The position numbers and the translations under genes are program-made. From Bacteroidota bacterium (GTDB lineage: Bacteria > Bacteroidota > Ignavibacteria > Kapaibacteriales > UBA2268), in assembly GCA_024278075.1 (NCBI GenBank), contig JAJRTW010000129.1, positions 7,522 to 71,521 of the forward strand: 64,000 nucleotides of DNA, written 5' to 3'. Positions 8,381-58,104 of the stretch are shown piece after piece; position 1 is the first letter of the stretch, and each line of letters begins with the position of its first letter. The notes under the pieces were generated by a model. The model was not told where the DNA came from and did no database searches. It saw nothing but the letters and a program-made list of their open reading frames with translations.

Positions 8381-8650
8381 TGTACTGTCCGGTTAACAAA
8401 AAGAGTCATTCCTACTATATGCTTGAATACTATGTCCTGTAATCCTGAGCGGAGTCGAAGGATCCAGTGTTTATGGCTCCTCTGGCAGTATTAAGATGGA
8501 TTCATCACTACGCCATAAATGGCTTCGTTCTGAATGACGCACTTTTTCCGTAGCGTCAGGACTTCCCGCCCTGATACTCTGACATATAATCCTTAAGCTT
8601 TCCGTAGTGTCAGGACTTTCCGTCCTGACGGCGTTACCATAGAATCATTA
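8381..8650. mobile_element. MITE-like composite palindromic element (left TIR ACTGTCCGGTTAACAAAAAGAG; GTCAGGACTTCCCG..CCTGAC hairpin modules); right end degenerate
   Basis: Shares the outer TIR and inner hairpin modules with elements at 14.4, 17.6, 46.7, 49.0, 57.4 and 63.1 kb. Non-coding. Confidence 0.5.
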
Positions 8651-9168: not shown

Positions 9169-10704
9169 ATGAAAACACGTATTACCACACTCGCTATTCT
9201 CTTTGTCATATTTAACATTATCCCCTCCAATGCTATTGACGGACAAGCACGAGCCAAACCGGGGCACATTCCATTTCCCGGAATGAATGAACAGCAAGAA
9301 CTATTTCCGTCCGGACTTGGAGAAATGAACGAAGACGGTGCGGTAAGATTTATGAAGATGGGCGATGGGGTTCAAAGCAATCCGGGTTATCTTGTTGAAA
9401 GTGTAAGAGTGTATTCATTGGTTGATAGCAATACTAAATACATATACGCTTACAATGAAAGCAATCAAATATTAACTGAAACATCCGAAGGATGGGAAAA
9501 CGGTGCATGGGTGAATTATGAAAGAATAACCAACACTTATGATTCCGATGGTAATCTCCTTACTAATTCACAGCAAAGATGGGAAAACGGTGCATGGGTG
9601 AATTATGAAAGAAGAACCAACACATACGACGAGAATAGTAATTTATTAACATGGTTATACGAATTAAAAATTAGCGAAAAGTGGGTGGAATTAATAAAAT
9701 ACACCTACACATACGACGAGAATAACAATATGTTGACATGGCTACAACAAAGCGGTATTGATGATGAATGGGTAAATGTTTTCAGATTTTCCCATACATA
9801 CGACGAGAATAACAATATATTGACATTGCAGAGAGAGGACTGGAAAAACGAGGCATGGCTAATATACATGAGATATATAAACACCTACGACTCTGAAGGC
9901 AATTTAATTACAAAAATATTTTTACAATGGGAAAATGAAGAATGGCATGATTATTCCCGAAGCACCTACGACTATGATGATGAAGGCAAACAGCTGTCAT
10001 GGGTTAAAGCAACCTGGAAAAATGAAGAGTGGGTGGATTTTAGCAGAGAAATTAACACTTACGACATTAACGGCAATCTGATACTATGGACATCTCAAAA
10101 TCTGCAGAATGAAGAATGGGTGGGTTTTAGGCAGGAAACAAACACCTACGATACCGATGGCAATCTAAGAACATCTATATATCAAAGAATAAGAAACTAT
10201 GAATGGGTCAATGATTGGAGAAAAACTTACACGTACAACACCGACGGCAATTTAATAGTATGGTCATATAGTCTTTGGCAAAACGAAGAATGGGCAGATA
10301 ATGGATTCTATTTATCTTTTGAAGACTCCTATGGAAATTCTTTTGGTAACTATTACGGTTTCAGCATAGGAATTATATGGAGGAGTGCTACTTCTGTCGA
10401 GGATGAATCGGATGACAACTTCTCCGTAACGTCTTTCCCCAATCCGTTCTCCGGTTCCACTACAATAAATTATACTCTTGACAATCCCGCCCGGGTTCGT
10501 ATTAATATTTATGACAATCTCGGAATTAAAATAACTTCTTTGATTGATGAATATCAATCCGCCGGCGAACATCAGGCGATATTCAATGCAATAAAAACAG
10601 GCAATCGCCTAAAAACAGGCAATCGCCTGTCAGCCGGAATGTATTACTATACTGTTCAAATAAATAATCAATTTGAACAAGGGAAATTATTGCTGGTGAA
10701 ATAA
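9169..10704 (+). CDS. Secreted YD-repeat-like protein with T9SS CTD
   Basis: About 12 degenerate repeats W(E/K)N(G/E)xWVxxxRxTNTYDxxGNLLT (YD-like). C-terminus FPNPFSGSTTINYTL...GMYYYTVQI. In-frame 18-bp tandem duplication KTGNRLKTGNRL inside the CTD. Confidence 0.6.
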   Translation: MKTRITTLAILFVIFNIIPSNAIDGQARAKPGHIPFPGMNEQQELFPSGLGEMNEDGAVRFMKMGDGVQSNPGYLVESVRVYSLVDSNTKYIYAYNESNQILTETSEGWENGAWVNYERITNTYDSDGNLLTNSQQRWENGAWVNYERRTNTYDENSNLLTWLYELKISEKWVELIKYTYTYDENNNMLTWLQQSGIDDEWVNVFRFSHTYDENNNILTLQREDWKNEAWLIYMRYINTYDSEGNLITKIFLQWENEEWHDYSRSTYDYDDEGKQLSWVKATWKNEEWVDFSREINTYDINGNLILWTSQNLQNEEWVGFRQETNTYDTDGNLRTSIYQRIRNYEWVNDWRKTYTYNTDGNLIVWSYSLWQNEEWADNGFYLSFEDSYGNSFGNYYGFSIGIIWRSATSVEDESDDNFSVTSFPNPFSGSTTINYTLDNPARVRINIYDNLGIKITSLIDEYQSAGEHQAIFNAIKTGNRLKTGNRLSAGMYYYTVQINNQFEQGKLLLVK

Positions 10705-11518: not shown

Positions 11519-11880
11519 CACTGTCCGGTGAAAAATGGGAGACTCTCTGAATATAATCCTAATATGCAAGTTGTGTTCTATAATATGATTAATCATATCG
11601 TATGATATATGATGCTGTCATTCCGAGCTTGCAAGGAATCCAGTATTTATGGCTACAACCAAGTATTTAATCCCAATACAGTTCATTTAACAACAATCTG
11701 ATTTTATTTCGTATTTTGTTTTAGTCATGTGGCTTATTCAATATTGTCAACTGTTGTGTCATTCGTACTATGTCATTGCCGTGACTACGAAGAAGCAGCG
11801 AAGCTCAAACGGGGATCCATTATTCCATGCACTATCTAACTATAAAAAGATGGATTCCGGATCAAGTCCGGAATGACAAC
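11519..11880. mobile_element. MITE-like composite element (left TIR CACTGTCCGGTGAAAAATGGGAG; GTCATTCCGAGCTTGCAAGGAATCC and GGATTCCGGATCAAGTCCGGAATGACA modules)
   Basis: Same module set as the other family members. No ORF. Confidence 0.5.
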
Positions 11881-12029: not shown

Positions 12030-13202
12030 CTAATTGTATTCGGGCAATGTATGTTCCCTACCCTTATTCTGCTCTTTTAAGTAATCCATCAGCGGGGCGA
12101 AATAATCAACCATCGGTTTGGCGCTCATATCCGAGCCGATGCTGGTTTGCAGCAATTCCCTCCAATCGACAGAAGCACCGGGCTTCATAATATCATAGAG
12201 GAATTTGCCGGTTTCCTTGCTGCCCCAGTAATTCGTAGAATGAGGGTCTTGCTTCAATATGTTCTTGGCGATATAATCATGGAACTGGAACAAAAGTACA
12301 TAGGAAATTGCATAGTCGTAATACTGTGCGGGGTCGTTGTTGATGTGTGTTTTCGAAGTGGCATCGCAATACTCCTCCCCGCGCTCTGCCGGAGGTACTA
12401 TCCCCTGATATTCTAATTTCAAATTCCACCATTTCTTGTTGAATTGCCCGGCATCCAGATTATTCGAATATAATTCCCACTCGAAATCAGTCATCACTCC
12501 TGCACCCCATGGGATAAAGACAATATATTCGAGAGCTTCTTTGAGCAATGTCATAGTTTCATCGGTTTTCGCATTTTCGTCGATAAGGCCAAGCCCGGTG
12601 AGGAATGGCTTCTGCAGGGAGGCAAGGCCGAGCAGGCTGCCGATTGCTTCGTGATAGCCCCTGTTGGCTCCGGTGCGAAGGACTATCGGGACATCTGGGT
12701 TTGTGTAGGCATCGAAATAATATATATGGCCGAGTTCGTGCAGAGTGGTTGCCCACCAGCGGGTGTTGTTGACAATACTCATCAGTGAACGCAGGTCGTT
12801 GTTCAGGTCGATATGCCAGGCCGAGGCATGATTGTTCTTCTTATAGTCCGCATCATCGGGAAGCGGATAGAGGCTCGACAGCTCGTAGAAAGAATGTGGC
12901 AGCGAATCCAGCCCGAGGCTCACATAGAACCTTTCGCCTTCCTTGACTATCCAGTTGCCGGGTTTTTCTTTCAATACTTCATCAAGGTTCATACCCTCGA
13001 CATTCACTAAGGCCGTCCAGTCCTGCCCCCACCTGTTGGGCATCCAGTGCGCCGGCAGCATATCCGGCACTTCCTTGCCATATTTTTCTGCCAATGTATA
13101 TCTTGCCCAGGTGTGCAATTCACGATAAAGCGGCCAGATGTCTTTAATCATACTCTGGCAAACCGCCCTCATTTCTTCAACTGTCATGCCATATTCAGAC
13201 AC
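12030..13202 (-). CDS. Peptidyl-dipeptidase A (ACE-like, MEROPS M2) catalytic portion, C-terminal 390 aa of a split gene
   Basis: HEXXH zinc motif TLHELGHIYY, GANRGYHEAIG and KWWNLKLEYQGIVPP align residue-by-residue with the ACE C-domain. Starts at GTG directly after an in-frame TAA. Confidence 0.75.
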   Translation of the reverse strand: MSEYGMTVEEMRAVCQSMIKDIWPLYRELHTWARYTLAEKYGKEVPDMLPAHWMPNRWGQDWTALVNVEGMNLDEVLKEKPGNWIVKEGERFYVSLGLDSLPHSFYELSSLYPLPDDADYKKNNHASAWHIDLNNDLRSLMSIVNNTRWWATTLHELGHIYYFDAYTNPDVPIVLRTGANRGYHEAIGSLLGLASLQKPFLTGLGLIDENAKTDETMTLLKEALEYIVFIPWGAGVMTDFEWELYSNNLDAGQFNKKWWNLKLEYQGIVPPAERGEEYCDATSKTHINNDPAQYYDYAISYVLLFQFHDYIAKNILKQDPHSTNYWGSKETGKFLYDIMKPGASVDWRELLQTSIGSDMSAKPMVDYFAPLMDYLKEQNKGREHTLPEYN

Positions 13203-13844
13203 TTAATAGGCGAAGAAATCGGAGTAATCCAAAGCCTGAACCGAAGCGTTCCTCAAGTGCCGAAGATTCTGCAATCCCTCTTTTAGGCCCTTACCCACTT
13301 CCTTGGACGCCTCCCATGCCTTCAATCTTTCCGTTAGGTCGGACGATTCGTCGAGGATTTTGTCGATGTCGTTGGTGGAAACCGGTTTGCCGTCAATCTG
13401 AAAATCAAATCCGAATAAGTCCTTGGTCTGTTTCGTATCCGCCTTGATTTTTTCCTTCACAACAGAATCAGCCGTAGCCGGGTTTCTTCCGGCGGTGTAA
13501 ATGATAGCGTCTAATTGCCTGGCCTGCAGGCCGGTTAATTTATTCTTATCGGCAAGGAAACCCTTAGCGCTTGTAATATTGTCGATACTGCCGGTGAATT
13601 TGGCATATTCTTCATTAGCTTTTTCGGCTAATTGGGCGGTTATGGTATCGCCTTCGATAATTTTAGTATTTAGCAGCCACTCCGCTTCGGAGGATTTTGT
13701 AACTAATTTCTGGATTTCAGCATTATATCCGTCCAGATAAGCCTGCACGGAATCCCTTAATTGGGAATAGTCTTCGGCGGGCTGTTCTTGTTTGCCGCAG
13801 GAAATTAGTGTGGCCAGGAGAATAAGAGTCAGGATTTTTTTCAT
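13203..13844 (-). CDS. N-terminal 213 aa of the same M2 peptidase (lipoprotein signal), terminated by in-frame TAA at 13203-13205
   Basis: Lipobox LISCGK. LKAWEASKEVGK...LRNASVQALDYSDFFAY matches the ACE N-terminal lid region. Same frame as, and contiguous with, 12030-13202. Confidence 0.65.
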   Translation of the reverse strand: MKKILTLILLATLISCGKQEQPAEDYSQLRDSVQAYLDGYNAEIQKLVTKSSEAEWLLNTKIIEGDTITAQLAEKANEEYAKFTGSIDNITSAKGFLADKNKLTGLQARQLDAIIYTAGRNPATADSVVKEKIKADTKQTKDLFGFDFQIDGKPVSTNDIDKILDESSDLTERLKAWEASKEVGKGLKEGLQNLRHLRNASVQALDYSDFFAY

Positions 13845-13903
13845 AATAGTAATTCGATTATTAGTGATACAATATATTTATTTGATTATTTTCTTAATGT
13901 GAT

Positions 13904-14118
13904 TTATAACAGTTCTTTTTTATTTATTCCAGCTTGTTTTAATATTTCAAGTAAGGTGCCTTTCGGTAAATCCTTTTTGTGATAAGGAACAATAACCCTG
14001 TTTTTGTTTTCAGGATTGAAGTAAATTCTATGGCTTCCTTTTGTTCATTTTATAACGAAACCTTTTTTAGAAGTAGCTTAATTATCTGGTCTGGTGTTAG
14101 GACAGGAGATTTAGGCAT
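13904..14118 (-). pseudogene. hicA: hicA toxin pseudogene (one A6-run frameshift plus an in-frame TGA)
   Basis: Across two frames reads MPKSPVLTPDQIIKLLLKK / KGFVIK*TKGSHRIYFNPENKNRVIVPYHKKDLPKGTLLEILKQAGI, matching the HicA consensus (GFxLVRxKGSHxxF...KDLxxGTLxxILKQAG). ATG overlaps the hicB stop (ATGccTAA). Confidence 0.55.
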
Positions 14119-14395
14119 GTGACTCAACAGAAAGATTATACTCTAAAGTTTGATCGTCACTGGGAACTTCTTCTCCATCCGCAATAAGGTCATCAATATA
14201 AATCCCAATGGCCTCTCTGGCCATATCAATAGATTCATCTATAGTATCTCCAAAAGTAACACAACCGGGGAGGGATGGAACAATTACGGTATAGCCGCCT
14301 TCGGGTTCTTTTCTGAGTATGATCCTCTTTCTGAGTATGATCCGGGAATTAAGAATCTTCATGGTTTTCTTCTTCGGGTAAATTAATTGATTCAA
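14111..14395 (-). CDS. hicB: HicB-family antitoxin (UPF0150)
   Basis: GGYTVIVPSLPGCVTFGDTIDESIDMAREAIGIYIDDL. In-frame 18-bp tandem duplication RIILRKRIILRK near the N-terminus. Confidence 0.7.
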   Translation of the reverse strand: MNQLIYPKKKTMKILNSRIILRKRIILRKEPEGGYTVIVPSLPGCVTFGDTIDESIDMAREAIGIYIDDLIADGEEVPSDDQTLEYNLSVESHA

Positions 14396-14430
14396 GAGAA
14401 TGCAAATATATTAATAAAATAATATATTTG

Positions 14431-14720
14431 GTCACAAGTATCCGGTTAAAAAGCAGTAAATAAGTTTAAATCATCGATTATTACTGCATATTAGTCTATA
14501 TTGTGCTATTTTTGATACGATTCGTAAATTAGTGAAATATAATATTAAAGCGCGTCATTCCGGACTTGTTGAGCTTGCGAAATCCCGCTATCGGGAATCC
14601 GGAATCCATCTCAATATGGCCACATAGCCCGTGAATACTGGATTCTGAAACGAGTTCAGAATGACAAGTCATAATATCCAGGTACATATTCTGAGCGTTT
14701 CTCTTTTTTTAACCGGACAC
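14431..14720. mobile_element. MITE-like composite element, complete (outer TIRs GTCACAAGTATCCGGTTAAAAAGCAG / TTTTTTTAACCGGACAC; inner GTCATTCCGGA...CAGAATGAC modules)
   Basis: Imperfect terminal inverted repeats plus nested hairpin modules. Non-coding. Its right end supplies a false upstream ATG for the next gene. Confidence 0.6.
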
Positions 14721-14759
14721 ATGTTATATTTGGTAAATAACTATTATGAAAAGCGTAAT

Positions 14760-15635
14760 ATGCTATATTATATTTTAATCTTTATTGTCTTTATAAACCC
14801 GGTTGTTTCGATAGCTGGCCAAACAGAGGAGGCAAAACTTCCTGACACATCAGCAACAAAAGTAAGCTCCACCAAACTTGGCATAATCGGCGGAGTGACG
14901 GCTGCCGGAGTTGTCATCGGGCAGATACACCAGTCCGGCACTTACTGGAATGAAAGGACAGCTTTTCATGCCATGCCTCTGGACAAGGAATACCCCGATG
15001 CCTTGATGGCGGATAAATTCGGCCACCTGTTCTTCGCCAATTTCCTTGCAAGTACATATAAATCAGCTTTTGAATGGGTGGGCTATAATCAGTCAAATGC
15101 GGCACTTCTCGGCGGGGGCGTGGCGTTGGCCTATCAGACACTGGTGGAGATGCAGGACGGATTTTCAGGCGGCAAACCCTACCTCGGCTTTAGCTATGGC
15201 GATATGTTGTTTAATACTGCAGGGGCTATATTCCCCTATCTGCAAATTAATTATTCGGTATTGAACAGATTCCGATTCAAGGCCAGCTTCCAGAAATCAA
15301 GCAACTTCGACCGGCTTAATTATAATTCCATCACAGAAGATTACGAAAGCACATATCACTGGCTGAGTATTAATATATGTGATCTGCTGCCAGATAATAT
15401 TCAACAATGGTACCCGGAATTTGTGAATCTTGCAATTGGGCATTCCGTTAGCAATATTGACCGCTATGGCGCCGGCGGCCACGAATTATATTTAGCTTTG
15501 GACTGGAACTTAGAGGCTTTGCCGGGAGATAATTTCTTCTGTGATTTCATCAAACAAACGTTTAATTTTTATAAACTGCCCGCACCGGCTGTGAAAATAT
15601 ATCCCAATGTAGTTTGGTACGGGCTGAAGTTCTGA
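14760..15635 (+). CDS. Secreted hypothetical protein (signal peptide); start moved to M34 of the six-frame ORF, downstream of the MITE
   Basis: MLYYILIFIVFINPVVSIAGQ signal peptide. The upstream 33 codons lie inside the repeat element. No confident family assignment. Confidence 0.45.
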   Translation: MLYYILIFIVFINPVVSIAGQTEEAKLPDTSATKVSSTKLGIIGGVTAAGVVIGQIHQSGTYWNERTAFHAMPLDKEYPDALMADKFGHLFFANFLASTYKSAFEWVGYNQSNAALLGGGVALAYQTLVEMQDGFSGGKPYLGFSYGDMLFNTAGAIFPYLQINYSVLNRFRFKASFQKSSNFDRLNYNSITEDYESTYHWLSINICDLLPDNIQQWYPEFVNLAIGHSVSNIDRYGAGGHELYLALDWNLEALPGDNFFCDFIKQTFNFYKLPAPAVKIYPNVVWYGLKF

Positions 15636-15759
15636 GGATGCTTGATTCCGGGTATATGTTGTGGTATATTCAGTAATTGGAATTAATGAATAATTTATTT
15701 ACCTTTTAATCGACTTATTATCATAGGGAAGTAAATATAATGAATGGATATAGAAAAAA

Positions 15760-15990
15760 ATGTTGAGAAATTTCACAGCAAAATACACTAAAATAAGTTC
15801 CGGCTATATGGGGCAAATTCTGGAATTACCCGAAGTTATCACTGAAGGCAAAAGCATTGAAGAATGCCAGGTTTTCCTTAAGGGTGCTCTTTTGGAAATA
15901 ACATTGGCATATAAACAACTCGGAAAGGAATTGCCTAATAATAATTGTTTGTTCGAACAGATTTCTTTGGATTCGGAAAATGTCAGTTAA
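15760..15990 (+). CDS. hicB: HicB-family antitoxin (second copy)
   Basis: YMGQILELPEVITEGKSIEECQVFLKGALLEITLAY has the HicB/UPF0150 N-terminal fold signature. Confidence 0.6.
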   Translation: MLRNFTAKYTKISSGYMGQILELPEVITEGKSIEECQVFLKGALLEITLAYKQLGKELPNNNCLFEQISLDSENVS

Positions 15991-16167
15991 GAGACGTGAC
16001 TTAATACGATACTTAGAGAAGAACGGATTTTATCTTTTGCGTGAGGGCGGGAACCATTCAATCTATTATGATAATAAAAAATAATACCTGTAAAACGGCA
16101 TAGAACCTTAGATAGGATCACGGCTAATGAAATTTGCAAGCAAGCCGGATTAGAGAAATTTTTTTAA
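15980..16167 (+). pseudogene. hicA: hicA toxin with frameshift in A6 run (16076-16081); reads as full-length 62-aa HicA if one A is added
   Basis: Frame 2 gives MSVKRRDLIRYLEKNGFYLLREGGNHSIYYDNKK*. Frame 1 continues IIPVKRHRTLDRITANEICKQAGLEKFF*. ATG overlaps the hicB stop. Confidence 0.55.
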
Positions 16168-16189
16168 TATTACGAAACGCAATAAGAAA

Positions 16190-16398
16190 ACGTGTCATTC
16201 CGGTCTTGTTGAGCTTGTGAATTCCCGTATTTGGAAGTAATCCCGCCATCGTAAATACGGAATCCATCTTGATTATGCAAATAGCCTATAAATACCGGAT
16301 TCCTCGCTTAGCTCCCCGATGAATCGGGACATGCAGAATGACAAGTCAAATTTATTAGGATAATATCCGGAGAAGCGGCCTTTTTTCACGGACATCAG
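16190..16398. mobile_element. MITE-like element fragment (inner GTCATTCCGGTCTTG...GCAGAATGACAAG module, degenerate right TIR)
   Basis: Family modules present. The left outer TIR is absent, and this flank abuts the hicA 3' end. Confidence 0.5.
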
Positions 16399-16418
16399 TT
16401 TTCGTTTTTATCGAATAA

Positions 16419-17093
16419 TCAATCCGTTACTTTCAGCTTTACCTTTCGCTCAAAATAATTTGCGATTCCAGCCGAGGCATCCCCTTTTTTCGTATCACCT
16501 TTTGTCAGCATCGCCTGCAAGGTTAATTCCACATCTTCCGCAGTGTCCGTCGGGCGAATGGACGAAGGGACTATCGTGATCTTAGCTCCTTCGTATCCCT
16601 TTAATTTATCCCCGGTGATCTTGCAGGACATTGGCAGGTTCACATCCCACCCGGGAGCGAATTTTGATAGAGAACTCGTTCCGATTGTGGTTGGATCGAC
16701 ATAAAGGAAAGCATTCCTGTATGGCGATATTTCCCTATCGCCTGCCTGCCTGCCTATGACCGTAATTATATTAATCACTTCATTACGCTTTGCCTCAATC
16801 AGGAACGATCCGTCTGGCTGCTTAAGGGATTTTTTTGTGGCTTTGTCAAGTATGTCGATAATGGTTTTGCTGTCATCTTTCCACGGCCCGTTATCGTCGT
16901 GGCAGGCAATGCAGTTTTCGGCATCGCTGAGAATCCCCACCGCAGGCGGATAGGCATAAGCCACACCGTAGCTGCTTTTGCCGAACTCAGGATGATAGTA
17001 ATATTCGGAATTGATGATCTGAACAATAATCATTGCCGCCATCACCAATATAGTTGTTGTTAATAATTTTGTTTTCATAATAATGCCTTTCAA
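16419..17093 (-). CDS. Membrane-anchored hypothetical protein with a single CXXCH haem-binding motif (possible c-type cytochrome)
   Basis: N-terminal TM helix and CIACH motif. No other recognisable domain. Confidence 0.35.
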   Translation of the reverse strand: MKGIIMKTKLLTTTILVMAAMIIVQIINSEYYYHPEFGKSSYGVAYAYPPAVGILSDAENCIACHDDNGPWKDDSKTIIDILDKATKKSLKQPDGSFLIEAKRNEVINIITVIGRQAGDREISPYRNAFLYVDPTTIGTSSLSKFAPGWDVNLPMSCKITGDKLKGYEGAKITIVPSSIRPTDTAEDVELTLQAMLTKGDTKKGDASAGIANYFERKVKLKVTD

Positions 17094-17257
17094 CCTATAT
17101 TATTTATAAAATATCCAAGATGACCACAAGGAAAAGTATAGTAGATGTTATCGTATTCTCAGTTTTTGATCCGACATGATTCTAATACTATCTACCTGGC
17201 CGATATATCGCCAGAAAAGATACTAAGCCTTTGAGTGAAAGTCCCGAATTATTCGGG

Positions 17258-17611
17258 TTAAAAAGTTAATACTTTATCCGCTTCAACAGTCAATTTTGCT
17301 AATTCATTTAAAGTACTTAATTCCGCACCTTCGATTAATTGTAAATCATTAATACCTCTGGCACCGGCACAGGTTCCGCATAATTTCACTTCACCGTTTC
17401 TTCGGATTACCGCCCTTAACATCCTCTCAATATTATAATAGCCATCGGGAGTCTTTTGATTGCTCATTGCACAAAAGGCAGCATCAGCCATCAGAAAAAT
17501 TCTTACCTCAACATCACCCGAATCTCTTTGAATCTGCATAGCCATTCGCAGCGCATTGTATGCCCTCTCCGTTCCATAGGGAGCGTCATTAATAATAAAC
17601 AGGATTTTCAT
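17258..17611 (-). CDS. DsrE/DsrF/TusD-like sulfur-relay family protein
   Basis: 117 aa. MKILFIINDAPYGTERAYNALRMA and a conserved Cys in KLCGTCAGARG. Confidence 0.6.
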   Translation of the reverse strand: MKILFIINDAPYGTERAYNALRMAMQIQRDSGDVEVRIFLMADAAFCAMSNQKTPDGYYNIERMLRAVIRRNGEVKLCGTCAGARGINDLQLIEGAELSTLNELAKLTVEADKVLTF

Positions 17612-17657
17612 AAAATTCCAGTGTCAGAGTTAAACAATTTCGTTTTTATAATATTTT

Positions 17658-17969
17658 GTCACAAGTGTCCGGTTAAAAAGCAGCCAATTGGTGATAATCA
17701 TAGTAATAAGCACCCTTTTGCCCTATATTGTGCTATAGTGGATGCAATTTCGGATTTAGCGAGATTTTATATTAAAGCGTGTCATTCCGGACTTGATCCG
17801 GAATCCATCTTTATTATAGCGAATAATATAATGAATACTGGATTCCCGCTGGAGTTTATCCTGAGCCCTTCGACTTCGCTCAGGATAAACTGCCGAAGGG
17901 CAGGAATGACACGTGACAGATATTAAGGGTATATTCATCAAGGCTCTCATTTTTTTACCAGACAGTACT
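17658..17969. mobile_element. MITE-like composite element, complete (TIRs GTCACAAGTGTCCGGTTAAAAAGCAG / CTCATTTTTTTACCAGACAGTACT)
   Basis: Inner TGTCATTCCGGACTTGATCCGGAATCCA hairpin and TTTATCCTGAGCCCTTCGACTTCGCTCAGGATAAAC hairpin, closed by GGAATGACACGTGACAG. Confidence 0.6.
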
Positions 17970-18090
17970 GATATTTTGTAATAAATTATTCCCTATTAAT
18001 GTACTACCCAGCCGCATACAGCTTGGTATCGATTTTGATTATCATTATAACAAGCAGGCAGGCCACTGGGAATAAAACCCGAGAGTGGGA

Positions 18091-18618
18091 TTAAACTTCA
18101 AAACCCATGAAAGCACTGAATACGAGCACTGATATTGCAAAAACAAGGCATATTTCGCATAAATATTTCCTGCGGGCGCGGAGCTTAAAGAACTCAGCCT
18201 CTGTTTCGGAATCCGGCTGGCTTGAACTTGAAAATCCCTCGAACATTACCTTTAGTTTTGGGTTGATCTTCAAAAATATCATACTCATTATTATCACCAT
18301 GCCAACAACAGACACAAGTTTGAGAGTGAGTGAAATTGATGCAACATTGGACAGGTCTTTGAAAGAATCATTGAAGAGATAGTAATTAAGCGGTATTCCG
18401 ATGCCGGTAACGAATAATGTTATTATAAAAGATATACAGTAGGGAGCATTCCCCTGCAATGTATCCTCTACAACCTTGTCTAATTCATAGAATAATTTAG
18501 GCCCGAATTGGCTTCTGTGGGTGACGAGGCTTCTGTTATAAAAAGGTGCTGCCGCACAGCCGACTAACGCAATATTATGCAGTGCGAGCAGAAATCCGTG
18601 AATAATTTGTTCTGTCAT
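18091..18618 (-). CDS. Hypothetical integral membrane protein (about 4 TM helices)
   Basis: Hydrophobicity pattern only. Confidence 0.35.
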   Translation of the reverse strand: MTEQIIHGFLLALHNIALVGCAAAPFYNRSLVTHRSQFGPKLFYELDKVVEDTLQGNAPYCISFIITLFVTGIGIPLNYYLFNDSFKDLSNVASISLTLKLVSVVGMVIIMSMIFLKINPKLKVMFEGFSSSSQPDSETEAEFFKLRARRKYLCEICLVFAISVLVFSAFMGFEV

Positions 18619-18656
18619 TTTTTTGAAACTCCCTATTTCAGGTTAAATAATTTTAC

Positions 18657-18983
18657 TTATAATTTATTGAGTATCTCATTATTTTTATGAAGCCTTTCGA
18701 TCAGAACTTCGCGCATAAGCTGGCAGGCTTCGACAACTTTAGGGGTGGACAGCTTAAAAAAAGTATATAGCCCTTCCTTTCTTTGCGTTAGGATGCCCTT
18801 CTCCACCATTACGGATAAATGCTGCGACAGGCTGGATTTCGCCACTCCGGTTTTGTCGGAGATCTGCCCAAAATTCATCTCGCGGTACTGCAACACATCA
18901 ATTATTTCAATCCTGATTGCGTGAGCCAATGCTTTGCAAACATCGGCGTGTAGTTTGTAAATCGTTTTGTCGTCCATAGCCAA
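18657..18983 (-). CDS. ArsR/SmtB-family HTH transcriptional regulator
   Basis: IRIEIIDVLQYREMNFGQISDKTGVAKSSLSQHLSVMVEKGIL winged-helix signature. Confidence 0.75.
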   Translation of the reverse strand: MAMDDKTIYKLHADVCKALAHAIRIEIIDVLQYREMNFGQISDKTGVAKSSLSQHLSVMVEKGILTQRKEGLYTFFKLSTPKVVEACQLMREVLIERLHKNNEILNKL

Positions 18984-19454
18984 TATTATAATATTATTAA
19001 TTCTAATCCCACATTGTGGGTTTAATACCCCGCTGCTTGCGGTGATTATTAAATTCTGTTAAACATTAATACCCCGCTGCTTGCGGCAGGGTAGTTTATT
19101 AGTTCGTCATATTATGAACTAATGAAGATACGAACATCTTATAATTTTATTTTTTAGCCTGCACTATTCGTAGAATATTCAAAATAACTGATATTTAATG
19201 TCAGATTTGCAGTGGATGGCAGGTATTACGGGATACTTAAATTGAGTCAATCCTGATTGCCATAGCCTCTGCCTAACTTAATAATATCTAATTAGTTACG
19301 AAGCTCTATAATAAAAGGCCCGAAATAATCGGGTAAATAAGGATATGTTTCAAACGTTAACGATTAATGAATAGGTAAATACGGAATATATAACTAGGGT
19401 TTCCTCAAAAAGTAGTCGAGGAAAAAGATTTTAATGATTATGATTAAAGGAGAA

Positions 19455-19600
19455 TAACAACCCCCTTAATCCCCCTTTTTTAAGGGGGAATTCTACTGGC
19501 TATTCCCCCTTAAAAAAGGGGGAAGTGAGCGATGCGAGCAGGGGGTTGTCCTACAATATGCAAGGCATAAAAGAATAATAAATCTATTTCCTTGCACCTT
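19455..19600. repeat. C-rich palindromic repeat element, inverted copy of 2010-2176
   Basis: The reverse complement aligns with 2010-2176 (TTGCACC...GACAACCCCCTGCTCGC...CCCCCTTTTTTAAGGGGG...). Confidence 0.6.
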
Positions 19601-19685
19601 TATAGTTGAATATCTATTGTAACTACAATACCAATAAGTATTTAATACTTTTTAAGGAATATATAAATACGGAACCGAAATTCAA

Positions 19686-24891: not shown

Positions 24892-24952
24892 TCGAAATAA
24901 TTGTTGAGCCAAGTGGTTAATAAATAATGTTATTGATGAATAATAGTTTTAG

Positions 24953-25086
24953 TGAATAATAGAATTAAAGAAAATAATAGAATTAAAGAAAATAATAGAA
25001 TTAAAGAAAATAATAGAATTAAAGAAAATAATAGAATTAAAGAAAATAATAGAATTAAAGAAAATAATAGAATTAAAGAAAATAAT
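24953..25086. repeat. 18-bp tandem repeat AGAATTAAAGAAAATAAT x ~7.5 in the porU-porV spacer
   Basis: Perfect head-to-tail copies. It generates the spurious LILLFS-repeat ORF on the opposite strand. Confidence 0.8.
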
Positions 25087-25372
25087 AATAAATAATAATA
25101 AAGATAAGAGTGCATAGGCTGGTGGAAATGAACAAGAACTGAGTATCGGGTTTTTGCCATCACCGCCGAATTAAAGTGCGGCCCGGCTAATGCCTGCATT
25201 TTCATTCAATATATAATTCCATTTAAACTTTGCATGGCTATCAGCCGCAGCATGTGAAAATGGTCGAAAATTTATTTAAATTATTTGGTGATTAGAAAAG
25301 TTTATTAGCAATTGAAAAAATATTAGAAATATAAATTCGTAATAATATAAATGTTATAATAAGGAATGAATT

Positions 25373-27524: not shown

Positions 27525-28043
27525 ATGGATCTCAATTATCTGAAAAAAATTATAAAAATCTTTGATGACAGCACGGCTACGAATCTTGAAATCAAAGAAG
27601 AAGGTGTTAATATCAAGATTTCGAATGCTCAGCCGGCCAATACTAGCGGGCAGGTGCCTTATCCCTTTTTCCCGATGCAAACCGCAGCTGCTCCGGTTCA
27701 GGGTAATCAAATTCAGCAATCGGCTCCGGAAACCTCTGCGCCGGTTCGGGATATGGTTAGTTCTGATGTTCAATCAGGAACCTCGGCACCTGATGCAGGG
27801 AATTATTACGAAATGAATTCGCCGATTGTTGGCACTTTCTATCGCTCGCCATCGCCGGATACCGATCCCTTCGTTGAAGTCGGGACGAAGATCAAGTCAG
27901 GGGATACTCTCTGCATCGTCGAAGCCATGAAACTTATGAACGAAATCGAAAGCGATATATCCGGTAATATTGAAAAAATATTAATTGAGAATGGACAGCC
28001 GGTTGAATATAATCAACCGCTATTCATTATCAAACCTGAATAG
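27525..28043 (+). CDS. accB: Acetyl-CoA carboxylase biotin carboxyl carrier protein
   Basis: Biotinyl-lysine motif [10 protein letters not shown] and a Pro/Ala-rich linker. Confidence 0.85.
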
Positions 28044-28169
28044 GTTGCACCTGAATAGGTTGCACCTGAATAGGTTGCACCTGAATAGGTTGCACCTGAA
28101 TAGGTTGCACCTGAATGGGTTGCACCTGAATGGGTTGCACCTGAATAGGTTGCACCTGAATGGGCGGCA
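28035..28169. repeat. 15-bp tandem repeat CCTGAATAGGTTGCA x9, whose first unit is the last three codons plus stop of accB
   Basis: accB ends ...AAA CCT GAA TAG. The unit is then reiterated 9 times, with two ATGGG variants, up to 65 bp before accC. Confidence 0.8.
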
Positions 28170-28233
28170 TTAGATTAATCGCTGCACCAGAATAGAATAT
28201 ATCAGAATAATCCTTAATAAATAAGAATAATAA

Positions 28234-29692: not shown

Positions 29693-29985
29693 ACTAGTGT
29701 CGTGTCATGCATACTTTGACGAATTATTTGTTGGCTGTCATTGCGGAACTTGTTTCCAAATCCAGTATTCACGGCCTATTTGGCTATATTAAGATGGATT
29801 CCGGATCAAGTCCGGAATGACATAGTACAGTTGACATATCACTAGTGTCGTGTCATGCATACTTTGACGAATTATTTGTTGGCTGTCATTGCGGAACTTG
29901 TTTCCAAATCCAGTATTCACGGCCTATTTGGCTATATTAAGATGGATTTCGGATCAAGTCCGGAATGACATAGTACAGCTGACAC
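29693..29985. mobile_element. Two tandem 148-bp copies of a MITE-like module (…GGATTCCGGATCAAGTCCGGAATGACATAGTACAGTTGACA…)
   Basis: Copy 2 (29841-29985) repeats copy 1 with about 3 substitutions. Preceded by a CCACGAACTAAAGCACGTGG mini-palindrome that also occurs at 11963 and 60957. Confidence 0.6.
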
Positions 29986-30033
29986 ATCACTATAATCGAA
30001 TAAACGCTTTTGTAATAATCGGTGCTACTGATA

Positions 30034-30600: not shown

Positions 30601-30830
30601 AAGTAGTGATGTGTCAGGCATACTATGACGGTTCATTTAAGTTGTCATTCTGAACCCTTCGGCAGTCTATCCTGAGCCCTTCGGCTTCGCTCAGGATAAA
30701 CTATGTCGAAGGACTCAGGATAAACTCCGTGAAGAATCCAGTATTCAAAGGCTATTAGGATGTATCAAAATGGATTCCGGATCAAGTCCGGAATGACATA
30801 GTACAGTTGACACGTCAGTAGTATAAATCA
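30600..30830. mobile_element. MITE-like element (GTCATTCTGAAC…TATCCTGAGCCCTTCGGCTTCGCTCAGGATAAAC…GGATTCCGGATCAAGTCCGGAATGACATAGTACAGTTGACACGTCAG)
   Basis: Same hairpin modules as the other family members. Confidence 0.5.
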
Positions 30831-46621: not shown

Positions 46622-46724
46622 GCTGGGAAATACTAACTAAATTATTCTTGCTCAAAAAAAACTTTGCCAAATTGGGAAATAGCCTTAATTTTGAATTAGT
46701 AAAATTTCGATTCAATTTGAATAT

Positions 46725-47035
46725 CAGTAGCGTCCGGTTAAATAGCAGTCAAAAAGTGCGAATCGCTGATATTAGCTTCACTTTGACCTATTATATGTTG
46801 CATTAGGTGCGATTTTGGATATAACAAAAATAGTTGTTAAAGTATGTCATACCGGACCCCGATCCGGTATCCATCTTAAATATAGCAAATAGCCTATGAA
46901 TACTGGATTCCCGCTGGAGTTTATCCTGATCCCTTCGACTTCGCTCAGGGTAAACTGCCGAAGGGCAGGAATGACACGTAACAGTTATTAAGGGTATTTT
47001 CTGCATAACTCTCATTTTATTAACCGGACAGTAGT
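46725..47035. mobile_element. MITE-like composite element, complete (TIRs CAGTAGCGTCCGGTTAAATAGCAG / CTCATTTTATTAACCGGACAGTAGT), 17 bp upstream of tRNA-Ser
   Basis: Inner modules are nearly identical to the 17.6-kb copy (…TTTATCCTGATCCCTTCGACTTCGCTCAGGGTAAAC…GGAATGACACGTAACAG). Confidence 0.6.
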
Positions 47036-47051
47036 ATTTGAATATACCACC

Positions 47052-49002: not shown

Positions 49003-49040
49003 CCTGTTTATTGTAAACATTGCTCCGGGTATATCTTATT

Positions 49041-49306
49041 GTCAGTAGTGTCCGGTTAAAAAGCAGTGAATAATTGGTAATCACAGTTATAGCCTGTATT
49101 TTGCCTTAGATAACGCTGGTTTAGATACAATTTCGTATCATAGCAATTATAATAATATTACTTGCCATTCCGGACCCCGTCCGGAATCCATCTTAATATA
49201 GCCACATAGCACGTAAATAATGGATTCTGAAACGAGTTCCGCAATGACAAATCATAATTATTAGGTATAAATTAGGAACGCCTCTCATTTTTAACCGGAC
49301 ACTACT
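49041..49306. mobile_element. MITE-like composite element, complete (TIRs GTCAGTAGTGTCCGGTTAAAAAGCAG / CTCATTTTTAACCGGACACTACT)
   Basis: Inner GCCATTCCGGACCCCGTCCGGAATCCATCTTAATATAGCCACATAGC…GCAATGACA module. Confidence 0.6.
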
Positions 49307-49368
49307 GTCTTATTGTCCCTTATGCAATCGAGCTAAGCTAAAGCCATAACAACTTCACAATATTCCGC

Positions 49369-52040: not shown

Positions 52041-52141
52041 TAGATATATAGCTAAGAGAAATATGTAATTGGCAGGGGTAATTCATTAATTGCCCCTATT
52101 ATTGCTATAGTGAAATCAGAGAAAACCCTCTAAATCTCCCT

Positions 52142-52384
52142 TTGAAAAGGGAGACTTTTAACCCCATTTACCAAGCGAGCTTGTTTCAAAGGGGGTGGTT
52201 CCGAAGGAACCGGGGGTTTCTAATTGAAGCCAGATATAGTGTTTGGTTTGTAGAAAATATTGGTATAGTAAAAACTCTACGGAAGCCGATTACTATTTCA
52301 GCGGCAGGTGAGACAGTGTCTACATTTCCTGGCGATCAATCAATTTTAATAGATCATAACGTTCCGGAGGAACCTTCTGAATAA
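52142..52384 (+). pseudogene. Silent duplicate of the C-terminal cassette of the 51189-52040 lipoprotein (gene fragment)
   Basis: ...LIEARYSVWFVENIGIVKT...IDHNVPEEPSE parallels ...LIEARYSVWFAEGIGIVKT...KDHNVPQAVQ. It lacks an N-terminal/signal region. Confidence 0.5.
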
Positions 52385-52783
52385 ATATTGTGCTAAGAGA
52401 AATATTTTTTGTAGGGGTAATTTGTGAATTGCCCCCATTATTGCTATAGTGAAATCAGAGAAAACCCTCTAAATCTCCCTTTGAAAAAGGGAGACTTTTA
52501 ACCCCATTTACCAAGCGAGCTTGTTTCAAAGGGGGTGGTTCCGAAGGAACCGGGGGTTTCTAATTGATTGGGATTCCCGCTCTACTGTCGCAATGACATA
52601 TTACAGTTGACACGCCGCTAATATATTAATCACGACAGTGAATGGAATACTATTATCCGCATGATCGAATTTTTCCCCGAGAGAAACAACCTGCCTTTTT
52701 AATTTCAATTTTTATTAATTTGAATAATTATCCCGTACATATTCGTTTAATAATTGATTTGACATTTTTTAATCCTCAATAAA

Positions 52784-54325: not shown

Positions 54326-54775
54326 ATGAAAATTAAGCTAAACTGGGGGTGGGCAATAGTCCTTTTTTTTATTTTGTTTATAACTGCATTGCTTTCCTTC
54401 GTCGTATTCACAACAACTGTTCATAACGATCTTGTGGCCGTTGATTATTACGAGCAGCAGATTACTTACCAGCAGCAAATCGATAAAGTCAAAAGAACGC
54501 AGAAGCTTGGCCGGCAATTGGCTGTGCGGCAGGGCAATGATTTTCTTGCTATAACATTCCCGGATACTTTCGCCGTGGATTCGATTGCCGGGAAAATCAT
54601 TTTCTTCCGGCCCGATGATGCAAAGAAAGATTTTACTATTGATATACTAACTGACTCGAACCTGAGGCAAGTGGTGTCGACCAAAGGCCTGCATCGCGGG
54701 CTGTGGAAATTAAGAATCGACTGGGCCGCCGGCGACAGTTTGTATTATAACGAAGAGCAAATTATACTTAGGTGA
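54326..54775 (+). CDS. FixH-like single-pass membrane protein
   Basis: About 150 aa with a single N-terminal TM, immediately after ccoG, as in ccoGH(IS) clusters. Confidence 0.5.
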   Translation: MKIKLNWGWAIVLFFILFITALLSFVVFTTTVHNDLVAVDYYEQQITYQQQIDKVKRTQKLGRQLAVRQGNDFLAITFPDTFAVDSIAGKIIFFRPDDAKKDFTIDILTDSNLRQVVSTKGLHRGLWKLRIDWAAGDSLYYNEEQIILR

Positions 54776-55486
54776 TTGCAATTGGATTTATTATCCGGAT
54801 TTATGATAGGGCTGCTTGGCAGTTTCCATTGCATTGGAATGTGCGGGCCAATAGTGTTATCGCTGCCTTTGGGCCAGCCCGGGGCTGCATCGCTGATAAT
54901 CCACAACGCTCTATATAATTTCGGACGGGTGTTGGCATACATGTTCCTCGGATTAATTGCCGGAGCAATCGGCCAGTCGATTTCCTTTGCCGGCTATCAG
55001 GAAGTATTGTCGGTTTCATTGGGGATACTTATCCTGTTATTATTATTTGCACCACGCAAAATAAAATCGTTATTTCTCGATATTCGACTAATTAAATCCG
55101 CATCAGAAAAATTCAGGTCATTTTTTGGAAGTAAATTAATTGCCACATCGAACACATCGATGCTTATAATTGGCGTGCTGAATGGATTTCTGCCCTGCGG
55201 ACTTGTCTATTTGGCCCTGGCCAACGCTGCTGTTTCGACAAGTGTTTATGGCTCTGCTGCGGTGATGTCCGCCTTTGGCCTTGGGACTATCCCTATGATG
55301 GCGGCAGCGTTTTTTCTTAAGAGGATTATCACTCCAAACTTAAAGCGGAAAATCAATAAATTTATTCCGATAGGAGTGGCGCTGATAGCCCTGCTGTTGA
55401 TTCTGCGCGGCCTGTCGCTTGGCATTCCGTTTATCAGCCCGATACTTCCCGATGCCGCCGGCGGTGCTATAATGGAGTGCCATTAA
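54776..55486 (+). CDS. DsbD_2 / UreH-like (sulfite-exporter TauE/SafE-annotated) polytopic membrane protein of the cbb3 maturation cluster
   Basis: GSFHCIGMCGP motif in TM1. 6 TM helices. Confidence 0.5.
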   Translation: MQLDLLSGFMIGLLGSFHCIGMCGPIVLSLPLGQPGAASLIIHNALYNFGRVLAYMFLGLIAGAIGQSISFAGYQEVLSVSLGILILLLLFAPRKIKSLFLDIRLIKSASEKFRSFFGSKLIATSNTSMLIIGVLNGFLPCGLVYLALANAAVSTSVYGSAAVMSAFGLGTIPMMAAAFFLKRIITPNLKRKINKFIPIGVALIALLLILRGLSLGIPFISPILPDAAGGAIMECH

Positions 55487-57410: not shown

Positions 57411-57906
57411 TTGTCAAAAGTGCCGTCCTGATAATAAAGCGGCCAAATAGTAACAATCTCAGTAATAAGCCCCATTTTACCCTATATTGAGCTATTAAGG
57501 ATATATTTAGAAAATTGCGAAATATAATATTAAAGAGTGTCATACCGGACTTGTTGATCCCAATGAAATCCCGCATTGGGAAGTAATCCCGCTATCGTGG
57601 ATCCGTTATTCGAATTAAATCAAAACCCCCGGCATCTTCGGAACAATAGTTCCTTCGAAGCCATCCCCTTTGAAAAATGGGGTTTAAGAATCAAAGTCTC
57701 CCTTTCTCAAAGGGAGATTTAGAGGGTTTTCTTATTTTGCTGTGGCATCATAGCTTCATTTCCTTCTGCCTAACACTGTATTCCCGCAGAAGTTTATCCT
57801 GAGTCCTTCGACTTCGTTCAGGATAGACTGTCGAAGGGCGGGAATGACACGTGAAAGCTATTAAGGATATATTTAGAAAGACACTAATTTTATTCCCGGA
57901 CACTGC
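57411..57906. mobile_element. Large (~500 bp) MITE-like composite element carrying extra CCCCTTTGAAAAATGGGG / TCTCCCTTTCTCAAAGGGAGA hairpin modules
   Basis: Degenerate left TIR, right TIR TTTTATTCCCGGACACTGC. Inner GTCATACCGGACTTG…GGGAATGACACGTGAAAG. It shares the CTCCCTTTGAAAAGGGAGA module with 52130-52560. Confidence 0.55.
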
Positions 57907-58104
57907 TTATTTATCTTAATCACTGTGAAATTATGCTCAAAATCAAAATTAATAAATATTTCATTGATATTATTATCTTAAATATAATTATTCTTCGTCA
58001 TTTTCTTAGTTTTTTGTTATTATGAATATTGTTAATATGGATATTTTGTTTTTCAATAATTATTTTAATCTATCTATTTACCATAATTACTAATACTATT
58101 TATT

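Follow-up and report, generated by a model that had tools for sequence, protein, structure and literature searches.

We found two toxin-antitoxin loci of the hicBA type within one 2.3-kb stretch of DNA from a Bacteroidota bacterium, and in both the toxin gene hicA is interrupted and the antitoxin gene hicB is open. We consider it likely that ordinary spontaneous mutation knocked out both toxin genes in the analysed 64-kb sequence (the window). At locus 1, the toxin gene has lost one nucleotide, stops at a TGA in place of Arg25 and carries a D24K exchange, and a relative displays the following step, in which most of hicA is deleted. At locus 2, one nucleotide, probably lost very recently from a short run of A, is missing, which ends HicA after 34 residues, so that the region of the catalytic His is kept and the last 28 residues of the fold are gone. 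The truncated HicA products are presumably inactive.

By their sequence, both loci are compact type II modules in which hicB precedes hicA, of the form known as "Class 2", with a small HicB that carries no DNA-binding domain. Class 2 hicBA modules encode a small HicB of 63-103 codons without a recognisable DNA-binding domain (Gerdes 2024, mBio; PMC10865869). The two loci resemble them in that the antitoxin gene comes first, the genes overlap, HicA is a protein of 60-85 aa, HicB measures 76-83 aa, and Pfam matches to HicA_toxin and HicB/UPF0150 are obtained. No Pfam match to an HTH or RHH family was found in HicB#1 or HicB#2. The overlaps of start and stop codons described in the first-pass annotation are present at both loci, with the hicA#1 ATG overlapping the hicB#1 stop by 8 nt (ATGccTAA, ATGCCTAA) and hicA#2 overlapping hicB#2 by 11 nt (ATGtcagtTAA, ATGTCAGTTAA); its assignment of all four genes to HicA and HicB is likewise supported by Pfam, once the hicA frames are repaired. 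In such modules HicA cleaves mRNA and so stops growth unless HicB neutralises it, and the same activity is predicted for HicA here. Unlike Class 2 modules, the two loci have interrupted toxin ORFs (a frameshift and a TGA in hicA#1, a frameshift after codon 34 in hicA#2), as the first-pass annotation had noticed, so that, going by the sequence, neither would work as a module; HicB#1 differs further by an extra 6-aa duplication.

The two modules are unrelated to each other and flank a core lipoprotein gene. Similarity between HicB#1 and HicB#2 is undetectable and the two HicA proteins are only about 37% identical, and cross-protection between the loci is therefore unlikely. Further hic copies were not found within the 64-kb window. 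A promoter and terminator scan of positions 13800-16450 returned sites no commoner than in shuffled sequence, and Rfam matches across the whole window were limited to four tRNAs, with none at the hic loci or at the repeats described below.

The toxin gene of locus 1, hicA#1 (13904-14118, minus strand), matches Pfam HicA_toxin (PF07927, E=2.5e-22) over essentially the whole profile when repaired, and then shares 64-74% identity with HicA proteins whose length ranges from 70 to 82 aa and is 74 aa in most. A change of frame is indeed needed to read it, as proposed earlier, but its site is 14061-14068 (plus strand CCTTTTTT, gene strand AAAAAAGG) rather than the A run at 14036-14041. Here the gene is one base short of homologues reading ..KKGF..; either an A has gone, leaving A6 of A7, or a G, leaving GG of GGG, as both would fit, and at a homologous locus (L126) GGG has been reduced to GG at this very site. 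The in-frame TGA at 14045-14047 (minus strand) had been said to hit a conserved residue, which the alignment bears out: it occupies the position of Arg25, where 12 of 13 homologues have Arg, and another locus (L143) has a TGA at the same codon. Adjoining it, a Lys replaces the nearly invariant Asp24 (D24K). The codons of the conserved G-S/N-H motif (GSH) are still there. Judged by its 1-nt loss, the TGA at Arg25 and D24K, hicA#1 is a true, established pseudogene.

Its antitoxin gene hicB#1 (14111-14362, minus strand) encodes 83 aa from the ATG at 14362, with an ORF that extends back to a TTG at 14395, and the product is a small HicB antitoxin (Pfam HicB_lk_antitox, PF15919, E=5e-14). The description of hicB#1 as intact holds for the open frame, but an 18-bp in-frame tandem duplication at 14309-14344 (minus strand; RIILRK twice) is lineage-specific and absent from the aligned orthologue in a related genome (L005); the antitoxin is accordingly best termed "intact" as an ORF that bears a 6-aa duplication. 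The L005 orthologue is itself intact (77 aa, about 91% identical, omega 0.10), and the hicA#1 next to it has lost about 160 bp and reads TAG where AAG is expected. The earlier suggestion of a decaying module with retained antitoxin thus fits locus 1, given its three lesions and the further decayed orthologue, in which hicA is deleted and hicB whole. Aligning both loci revealed no lesion demonstrably common to hicA#1 and L005 that would date the death of the toxin back to their common ancestor, and the low omega of hicB#1 therefore gives no ground for assuming selection on an antitoxin that had lost its toxin.

At locus 2, hicB#2 (15760-15990, plus strand) encodes a small UPF0150-like HicB antitoxin of 76 aa, which only just passes the cut-off of Pfam UPF0150 (PF21748; E=1.6e-6, 28.3 bits against 27.3) and shares about 80% identity with a HicB of equal length (76 aa) at a related locus (L001; omega 0.15). 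The toxin gene hicA#2 (15980-16167, plus strand) encodes 34 aa as written, and this fragment alone scores 28.2 bits against the HicA_toxin cut-off of 27. Alignment places a deficit of exactly one base in the A6 run at 16076-16081 (plus strand), where the window reads GATAAT-AAAAAATA and the related loci L001 and L002 read GATAATGAAAAAATC. Adding one base there restores a full 62-aa HicA, as the first-pass annotation had anticipated, and the repaired protein covers essentially the whole of Pfam HicA_toxin (PF07927, E=5e-14) and shares 92% identity with P0001, a HicA of 62 aa that is intact. All but one (71 aa) of the best 120 matches to HicA#2 are 62 aa long. The codons of the GNH motif are still there, and those behind the shift differ by 11.5 synonymous and 4.5 non-synonymous changes (omega 0.045). 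Since this part has undergone almost only synonymous change, the break would be a very recent mutation, or possibly an assembly artefact.

An error of base calling or polishing in the A6 run would make locus 2 a working module and leave hicA#1 as the only pseudogene. A single base in a homopolymer is the classic error of this type, the shifted frame is perfectly conserved downstream and highly similar to the intact protein, as would be expected of an error and of a very young mutation alike, and the gene is intact in all three assemblies of the closest relative. We nevertheless regard this reading as rather unlikely. The window contains 100 homopolymer runs of at least 6 nt, 60 of which lie inside long ORFs without breaking the frame, and no other frameshifted gene was found in the 64 kb; other adjacent ORF pairs checked with Pfam gave either a full-profile match or no match, and no evidence of a split. 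The 60 unbroken runs, together with the lack of another frameshifted gene in the window, argue that the assembly is not prone to homopolymer error. It would also be a coincidence if the only two frame breaks fell by error into two toxin genes that make up about 0.8% of the coding sequence, and real disruption of the toxin is common in the family, as the survey below documents. Two nearby lesions, the TGA of hicA#1 and a GAA to TAA change in the neighbouring M2 peptidase gene, are moreover substitutions and not indels, which likewise speaks against random error. We infer that the lesion at locus 2 is real, and rank the artefact below it as the less likely origin. Elsewhere in the window, what looked like another gene split in frame, at 54326-55486, proved to be two ordinary genes side by side.

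Loss of the toxin is frequent among related loci. Within the family of HicB#2, surveyed at 59 metagenome loci that were anchored on an intact HicB#2 relative and had room downstream, hicA is intact at 44, frameshifted, truncated or interrupted by a nonsense codon at 12, and missing at three. In the family of HicB#1, relatives of this protein served as anchors for about 76 loci in genomes; 55 have an intact hicA and about 21 a disrupted, short or absent one, and three loci of the latter kind belong to an isolate, Methanoculleus formosensis Afa-1. Toxin genes are thus broken or missing at about 25% of the related loci anchored on an intact hicB, and the reverse state, a broken hicB beside an intact hicA, occurs at none of the loci in either survey, with the proviso that anchoring on HicB similarity slightly favours loci with a recognisable hicB. 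Most of these loci lie on MAG or metagenome contigs and some disruptions could be assembly errors, yet nonsense codons and deletions dominate. The breaks in disrupted homologues fall at many positions and are of several lesion types. They cluster in the purine-rich stretch encoding ..EKKGF..

The A runs could alternatively be functional, either through low-level -1 ribosomal frameshifting or transcriptional slippage that yields a little full-length HicA and thereby an attenuated toxin, or as a reversible, phase-variable on/off switch. The zero frame of hicA#1 reads CT-A-AAA-AAG, a classic slippery heptamer at which a -1 shift restores the HicA frame, and a slip of the Lys-tRNA on AAA-AAA ahead of the TAA in hicA#2 would give exactly the consensus protein, although the T-AAA-AAA preceding that TAA allows slippage of a single tRNA only; the clustering of homologue breaks in one purine-rich stretch would also agree with such a function. 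A motif by itself does not show function, and slippage seems very improbable to us. In the closest relatives, and in all of the best 120 matches to each repaired toxin, the gene is a single ORF. Among disrupted homologues the lesions differ in kind and are scattered over many sites, the majority of intact homologues have no long A run at either place, and hicA#1 would run into its TGA even after the shift. An A6 run is also short for efficient transcriptional slippage. With no conserved frameshift site, programmed frameshifting is left unsupported.

That the TGA of hicA#1 and the TAA of the M2 peptidase gene are read as sense codons, through an alternative genetic code or recoding, is next to impossible. 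The two in-frame stops do lie about 1 kb apart or less; but they differ as codons, ORFs of up to 1556 aa run uninterrupted across the window under table 11, and relatives carry ordinary codons at both places, a GAA in the peptidase gene and a codon for Arg in hicA. The long ORFs and the codons of the relatives effectively refute an alternative code.

Orthologous loci were found through homologues of the M2 peptidase. The DUF2279 protein, used as query in a scan of the genome collection, retrieved no relatives, and exact-sequence look-ups with HicB#2 and its DsrE-like neighbour found no independent assembly of the same strain on record. The gene between the modules (14661-15635, plus strand) encodes a predicted periplasmic lipoprotein (Pfam DUF2279, E=4.8e-13), and translation probably begins near 14761, since the ORF as called overlaps a repeat at its 5' end. 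In a related genome (L004) its orthologue, with 81% nucleotide identity, sits directly between the M2 peptidase gene and lipB, and hic#1 is missing between DUF2279 and M2; by this position the DUF2279 gene is syntenic core and not cargo. Compared with L004, two independent differences flank the gene, one made up of hic#1 and a repeat (about 0.85 kb) and the other a separate block of about 4 kb with hic#2 at its start.

The same annotation had pictured the hic pair as a small mobile islet bounded by MITE copies, which this arrangement does not support. Repeat copy 1 (about 14434-14724) lies inside the region, between hicB#1 and the DUF2279 gene, and copy 2 (about 16190-16346) directly 3' of hicA#2. 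Copy 1 has an outer 19-nt inverted repeat and inner arms at 14542-14570 and 14649-14677, and matches copies at 8386, 16181, 17651, 29736, 29884, 30733, 46862, 49031 and 57473; copy 2 ends in an 11-nt terminal inverted repeat (ACGTGTCATTC/GAATGACAAGT). The terminal inverted repeats are 72% complementary over 29 nt in one case and 91% complementary over 11 nt in the other. Like dispersed intergenic repeats of the MITE or REP type, these elements measure about 110-290 bp, have imperfect terminal inverted repeats (GTCATTC...GAATGAC) and internal hairpins, and occur in many intergenic copies, at least 10 sites in the window, as well as in a related genome. They depart from MITEs in that the copies are modular and unequal in length, without specific link to the hic loci, and that a target-site duplication and a parent transposon were not identified. 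They form a genome-wide family and not the boundaries of a hic region. An integrase or transposase was not found among the ORFs scanned with Pfam either, and by this comparison a single mobile islet carrying both hic loci is not supported.

The asymmetry between toxin and antitoxin presumably reflects the cost of each loss: losing the antitoxin first would be lethal, and losing the toxin first harmless or even beneficial. Decay would consequently run in one direction, the toxin going first and a stand-alone hicB persisting for a time. The decay of the chromosomal ccdO157 module of E. coli is reportedly of this kind. Orphan antitoxins derived from degraded toxin-antitoxin loci have been described, among them a Caulobacter parE pseudogene with ParD kept, a frameshifted yacB in Shigella and orphan antitoxins in Klebsiella (PMC7354431), and solitary hicB genes are known as well (PMC10865869). 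The loci reported here resemble these cases in losing the toxin by frameshift or nonsense mutation as the antitoxin ORF persists, and in occupying accessory positions that vary among relatives. They differ in family and host, in that two independent modules within one 2.3-kb stretch are in the same state, and in that a relative exhibits the next step, a toxin deleted down to a 5' stub.

A more far-reaching possibility is that a small HicB is kept by selection after toxin loss as a stand-alone immunity gene, the recurrent knock-out being adaptive and not mere decay. In the anti-addiction model, the chromosomal CcdA of E. chrysanthemi acts against CcdB of the F plasmid (cited in PMC7354431), and by analogy an antitoxin encoded on the chromosome, its own toxin being defunct, could neutralise a homologous toxin that enters the cell. 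Here the low omega of hicB is not assignable to the time after toxin loss, and we judge such selection unlikely. If it did operate, a solitary HicB would neutralise HicA from plasmids, phages or defence islands, for example, and toxin knock-out, seen at about a quarter of the loci in two unrelated Class 2 families, would be an adaptive route. In a weaker variant, the short A and G runs in hicA might serve as reversible mutational switches.

A broken toxin beside a whole antitoxin is a well-known route of decay, and our finding is real but ordinary, leaving the understanding of toxin-antitoxin systems unchanged. Annotation should present neither of the loci as a toxin-antitoxin or defence system that functions; hicA#1 belongs among the pseudogenes, and hicA#2 is best listed as disrupted until sequencing reads confirm it. 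Across related genomes, the empty site, the broken toxin and the deleted toxin with a solitary hicB would line up as stages of a one-directional decay. Our data furthermore suggest that about one quarter of compact hicBA loci in environmental genomes have already lost the toxin, which matters wherever toxin-antitoxin and defence genes are counted at face value.

We found that each of the two loci carries an antitoxin gene followed by a toxin gene, as the first-pass annotation had proposed: the Pfam check supports all four genes as HicB or HicA once the hicA reading frames are repaired, that is, restored across their breaks. At locus 1 (minus strand), hicB#1 is an 83-aa ORF with its ATG at 14362 and its stop at 14111-14113, overlapping by 8 nt the HicA-like coding sequence of hicA#1, which runs down to a TAA at 13904-13906. 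At locus 2 (plus strand), hicB#2 (15760-15990, 76 aa) overlaps hicA#2 by 11 nt; as written, this toxin ORF (15980-16084) has 34 codons before a stop, beyond which a perfect HicA sequence continues in the next frame to 16167. HicB#1 matches HicB_lk_antitox (E=5e-14), HicB#2 matches UPF0150, narrowly over the cut-off (E=1.6e-6), and repaired HicA#1 and HicA#2 match HicA_toxin (E=2.5e-22 and E=5e-14, respectively). Both loci fit Class 2 hicBA, defined by an antitoxin gene that comes first and overlaps the toxin gene, and by a small HicB that lacks a DNA-binding domain (Gerdes 2024, PMC10865869). HicA#1 and HicA#2 are ~37% identical and no similarity was detectable between HicB#1 and HicB#2; judged by their sequences, the modules are not duplicates of each other.

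At locus 1, hicA#1 is certainly a genuine pseudogene, with a single frame change and an in-frame TGA. The frame change had been recognized but misplaced at 14036-14041; it lies at 14061-14068 (gene strand AAAAAAGG), where a lost A and a lost G fit equally well. Repaired HicA#1 can be aligned over its whole length with HicA homologues, which are 70-82 aa long (mostly 74 aa) and 64-74% identical to it. The TGA (14045-14047) does fall on a conserved residue, aligning with Arg in 12 of 13 homologues, and beside it stands a Lys where homologues have a nearly invariant Asp. The antitoxin gene hicB#1, described as intact, is indeed an open frame, yet this description needs correction in one detail: an 18-bp in-frame tandem duplication (14309-14344, minus), which encodes RIILRK twice, is missing from the orthologue in the related locus L005 and probably lies in the first beta strand of HicB#1.

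Orthologous locus-1 regions were reached via the adjacent M2 peptidase gene. In L005 (Logan SRR29092999; M2 91% identical to that of the window), hicB#1 is intact (77 aa), while only a ~55-nt 5' stub of hicA is left: an AAG has become TAG, and a ~160-bp deletion extends nearly to the M2 start. In L004 (GCA_964613245.1; M2 88% identical), the lipoprotein gene DUF2279 directly adjoins M2, with neither hic#1 nor a repeat in between. Three states are therefore found across related genomes: the module is absent, its toxin is broken, or its toxin is deleted and hicB stands alone. The frameshift, the TGA and the Asp to Lys change, together with the largely deleted hicA of L005, bear out the suggestion that locus 1 is a decaying toxin-antitoxin (TA) module with its antitoxin kept. 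Between hicB#1 and its L005 orthologue (window 14111-14362 vs L005 44-277), 16 synonymous and 7 non-synonymous differences give an omega of 0.10, a value that cannot be attributed to the time since the toxin was lost, because the comparison demonstrates no lesion common to both hicA#1 genes; for the same reason, the two losses may be independent. The dS of hicB#1 is 0.41 and that of M2 in the same genome pair 1.10, and the lower value might mean that the module was acquired later or exchanged, or that it is under additional constraint. The M2 (ACE-like) peptidase gene (12030-13844, minus) is itself split by an in-frame TAA at 13203-13205, where both relatives have GAA (Glu); with omega ~0.05 on each side, the TAA either arose very recently as a nonsense mutation or is an error of the consensus.

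Along its entire length, repaired HicA#2 shares 92% identity with an intact 62-aa HicA (P0001), and its best 120 database matches are all 62 aa long except one of 71 aa. DNA alignment with the closest orthologue agrees with the earlier reading that exactly one base is lacking: the related loci L001 and L002 have GATAATGAAAAAATC, the window GATAAT-AAAAAATA. Compared with L001, hicA#2 shows 16.3 synonymous vs 3.7 non-synonymous differences before the break and 11.5 vs 4.5 after it (omega 0.045); omega of hicB#2 is 0.15. The low value after the break implies that purifying selection acted on the downstream frame throughout practically the whole divergence, and the break would thus be either very young or not real. 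The latter would correspond to the homopolymer mis-call that the first-pass annotation had considered, and no second, independent assembly of this strain was found. The window contains 100 homopolymer runs of at least 6 nt, 60 of them within uninterrupted long ORFs, and no other frameshifted gene was found among the adjacent ORF pairs and gaps checked; pair members with a Pfam match span the whole profile (EF-P, BCCP, IspF, adenosyltransferase, deaminase, LipB, DsrE), and several ORFs are without a match. Within the 64 kb, frame breaks were therefore seen only twice, each time in a toxin gene; together, the two toxin genes account for ~0.8% of coding sequence. The hicA#1 TGA and the M2 GAA to TAA change, both close by, are substitutions, not indels. 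The unbroken homopolymers, the confinement of breaks to toxins, the nearby substitutions and the commonness of toxin disruption favour a real mutation, which we consider quite likely, and a sequencing artefact appears rather unlikely. At locus 2, the knock-out is probably real and very recent.

The MITE-like repeats are real: their terminal inverted repeats (GTCATTC...GAATGAC) are imperfect, they contain internal hairpins, and they form a modular family with copies at no fewer than 10 intergenic sites of the window (~8386-8503, 11605-11878, 14434-14724, 16190-16346, 17647-17982, 29693-29994, 30664-30825, 46712-47047, 49030-49307 and 57473-57920). Several spurious ORFs cross such MITE/REP-like copies, as does the 5' part of the DUF2279 ORF. 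The family also occurs in a related genome (~80% nt identity), with one copy (L001 1995-2304) just upstream of the hicB#2 orthologue. Contrary to what had been claimed, repeats do not bracket the hic pair, since one copy lies between hic#1 and DUF2279 and the other after hicA#2. The gene order of L004 (lipB, DUF2279, M2 peptidase, next gene) matches window 20437-19677, 15639-14867, 13847-12032 and 11359-10777, which makes DUF2279 a core gene. Two separate blocks set the window apart from L004, one of ~0.85 kb (repeat and hic#1) and one of ~4 kb (15640-19680), without which DUF2279 abuts lipB in L004. The larger block begins with hic#2 and a repeat; next come a 224-aa protein that has a CxxCH haem motif and matches no Pfam family, a DsrE-like protein, a second repeat, a 175-aa membrane protein and an ArsR-type regulator. 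The window and the relative's hicBA#2 have only 15680-16158 in common (~80 nt upstream plus the two genes), in different neighbourhoods. The hic modules are thus mobile or variably placed; the proposed single mobile islet is not supported, as two separate blocks flank the core DUF2279 and no mobility gene was found among the ORFs scanned with Pfam.

Other repetitive features of the window include two tandem arrays (24919-25105 and 28019-28183), one with an AT-rich 18-nt unit between genes, the other with ~10 copies of the 15-nt unit ACCTGAATAGGTTGC from the 3' end of the biotin-carboxyl-carrier gene. An otherwise gene-poor stretch contains two 95-nt direct repeats (52057-52151 and 52396-52490; 87% identical, 339 nt apart). 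The ORF at 9169-10704 (+) contains seven 87-nt (29-aa) repeats (9488-10251), and its protein has a T9SS C-terminal sorting domain, which points to a host in the Bacteroidota/Ignavibacteria group.

Our surveys of related loci were anchored on the antitoxin, so that toxin state had no influence on which loci were found; this gives a slight bias toward recognisable hicB, and the loci are mostly MAG or metagenome contigs. Among 59 HicB#2-type loci from metagenome contigs with intact hicB and enough downstream sequence, hicA was an intact 62-aa gene in 44, frameshifted, nonsense or truncated in 12 and missing in 3. The HicB#1 survey of species-representative genomes (~76 loci) yielded 55 intact hicA genes and ~21 disrupted, shortened or absent ones. 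Taking both surveys together, the toxin was lost in about a quarter of loci, and no broken hicB was found beside an intact hicA; two loci with stops in hicB had stops in hicA as well. Three of the ~21 HicB#1-type loci without an intact toxin (L113, L124, L157; hicA frameshifted, truncated or absent) are in the isolate Methanoculleus formosensis Afa-1, and toxin loss with hicB kept is therefore not merely a MAG artefact. Two loci of the HicB#1 set (L119, L161) and one of the metagenome set (L017) retain only a 5' hicA stub overlapping the hicB end, exactly like L005. The hicA breaks fall at many positions and differ in type. Some are found repeatedly within the purine-rich ..EKKGF.. stretch. 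Like hicA#1, L143 carries a TGA at Arg25, and L126 shows a GGG to GG loss at the hicA#1 frameshift site of the window. Long A runs are avoided at both sites by most intact homologues. Programmed frameshifting or phase variation of hicA, which recurrent break sites might suggest, is not supported, since the frameshift is not conserved and hicA#1 would still run into a stop codon after shifting; the sites look less like a conserved signal for recoding than like spots prone to mutation.

The two loci are best explained as Class 2 hicBA modules in ordinary, one-directional decay, and the TA part of the original interpretation was right, its observation essentially correct. A working HicA would cleave mRNA, with HicB restraining it, as known for the family (PMC10865869). 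A first mutation that kills the antitoxin would be lethal, while one that kills the toxin would be tolerated; toxin-dead, antitoxin-alive loci would therefore accumulate, until a deletion removes the dead toxin gene. The HicB proteins that are left might conceivably serve a purpose, for example in anti-addiction. Antitoxins orphaned by the degradation of TA loci, toxins with frameshifts and hicB genes standing alone have been described before (PMC7354431; PMC10865869). Our case is a further instance of this known phenomenon, to which the staged comparison of related genomes and the one-in-four survey figure add modest value.
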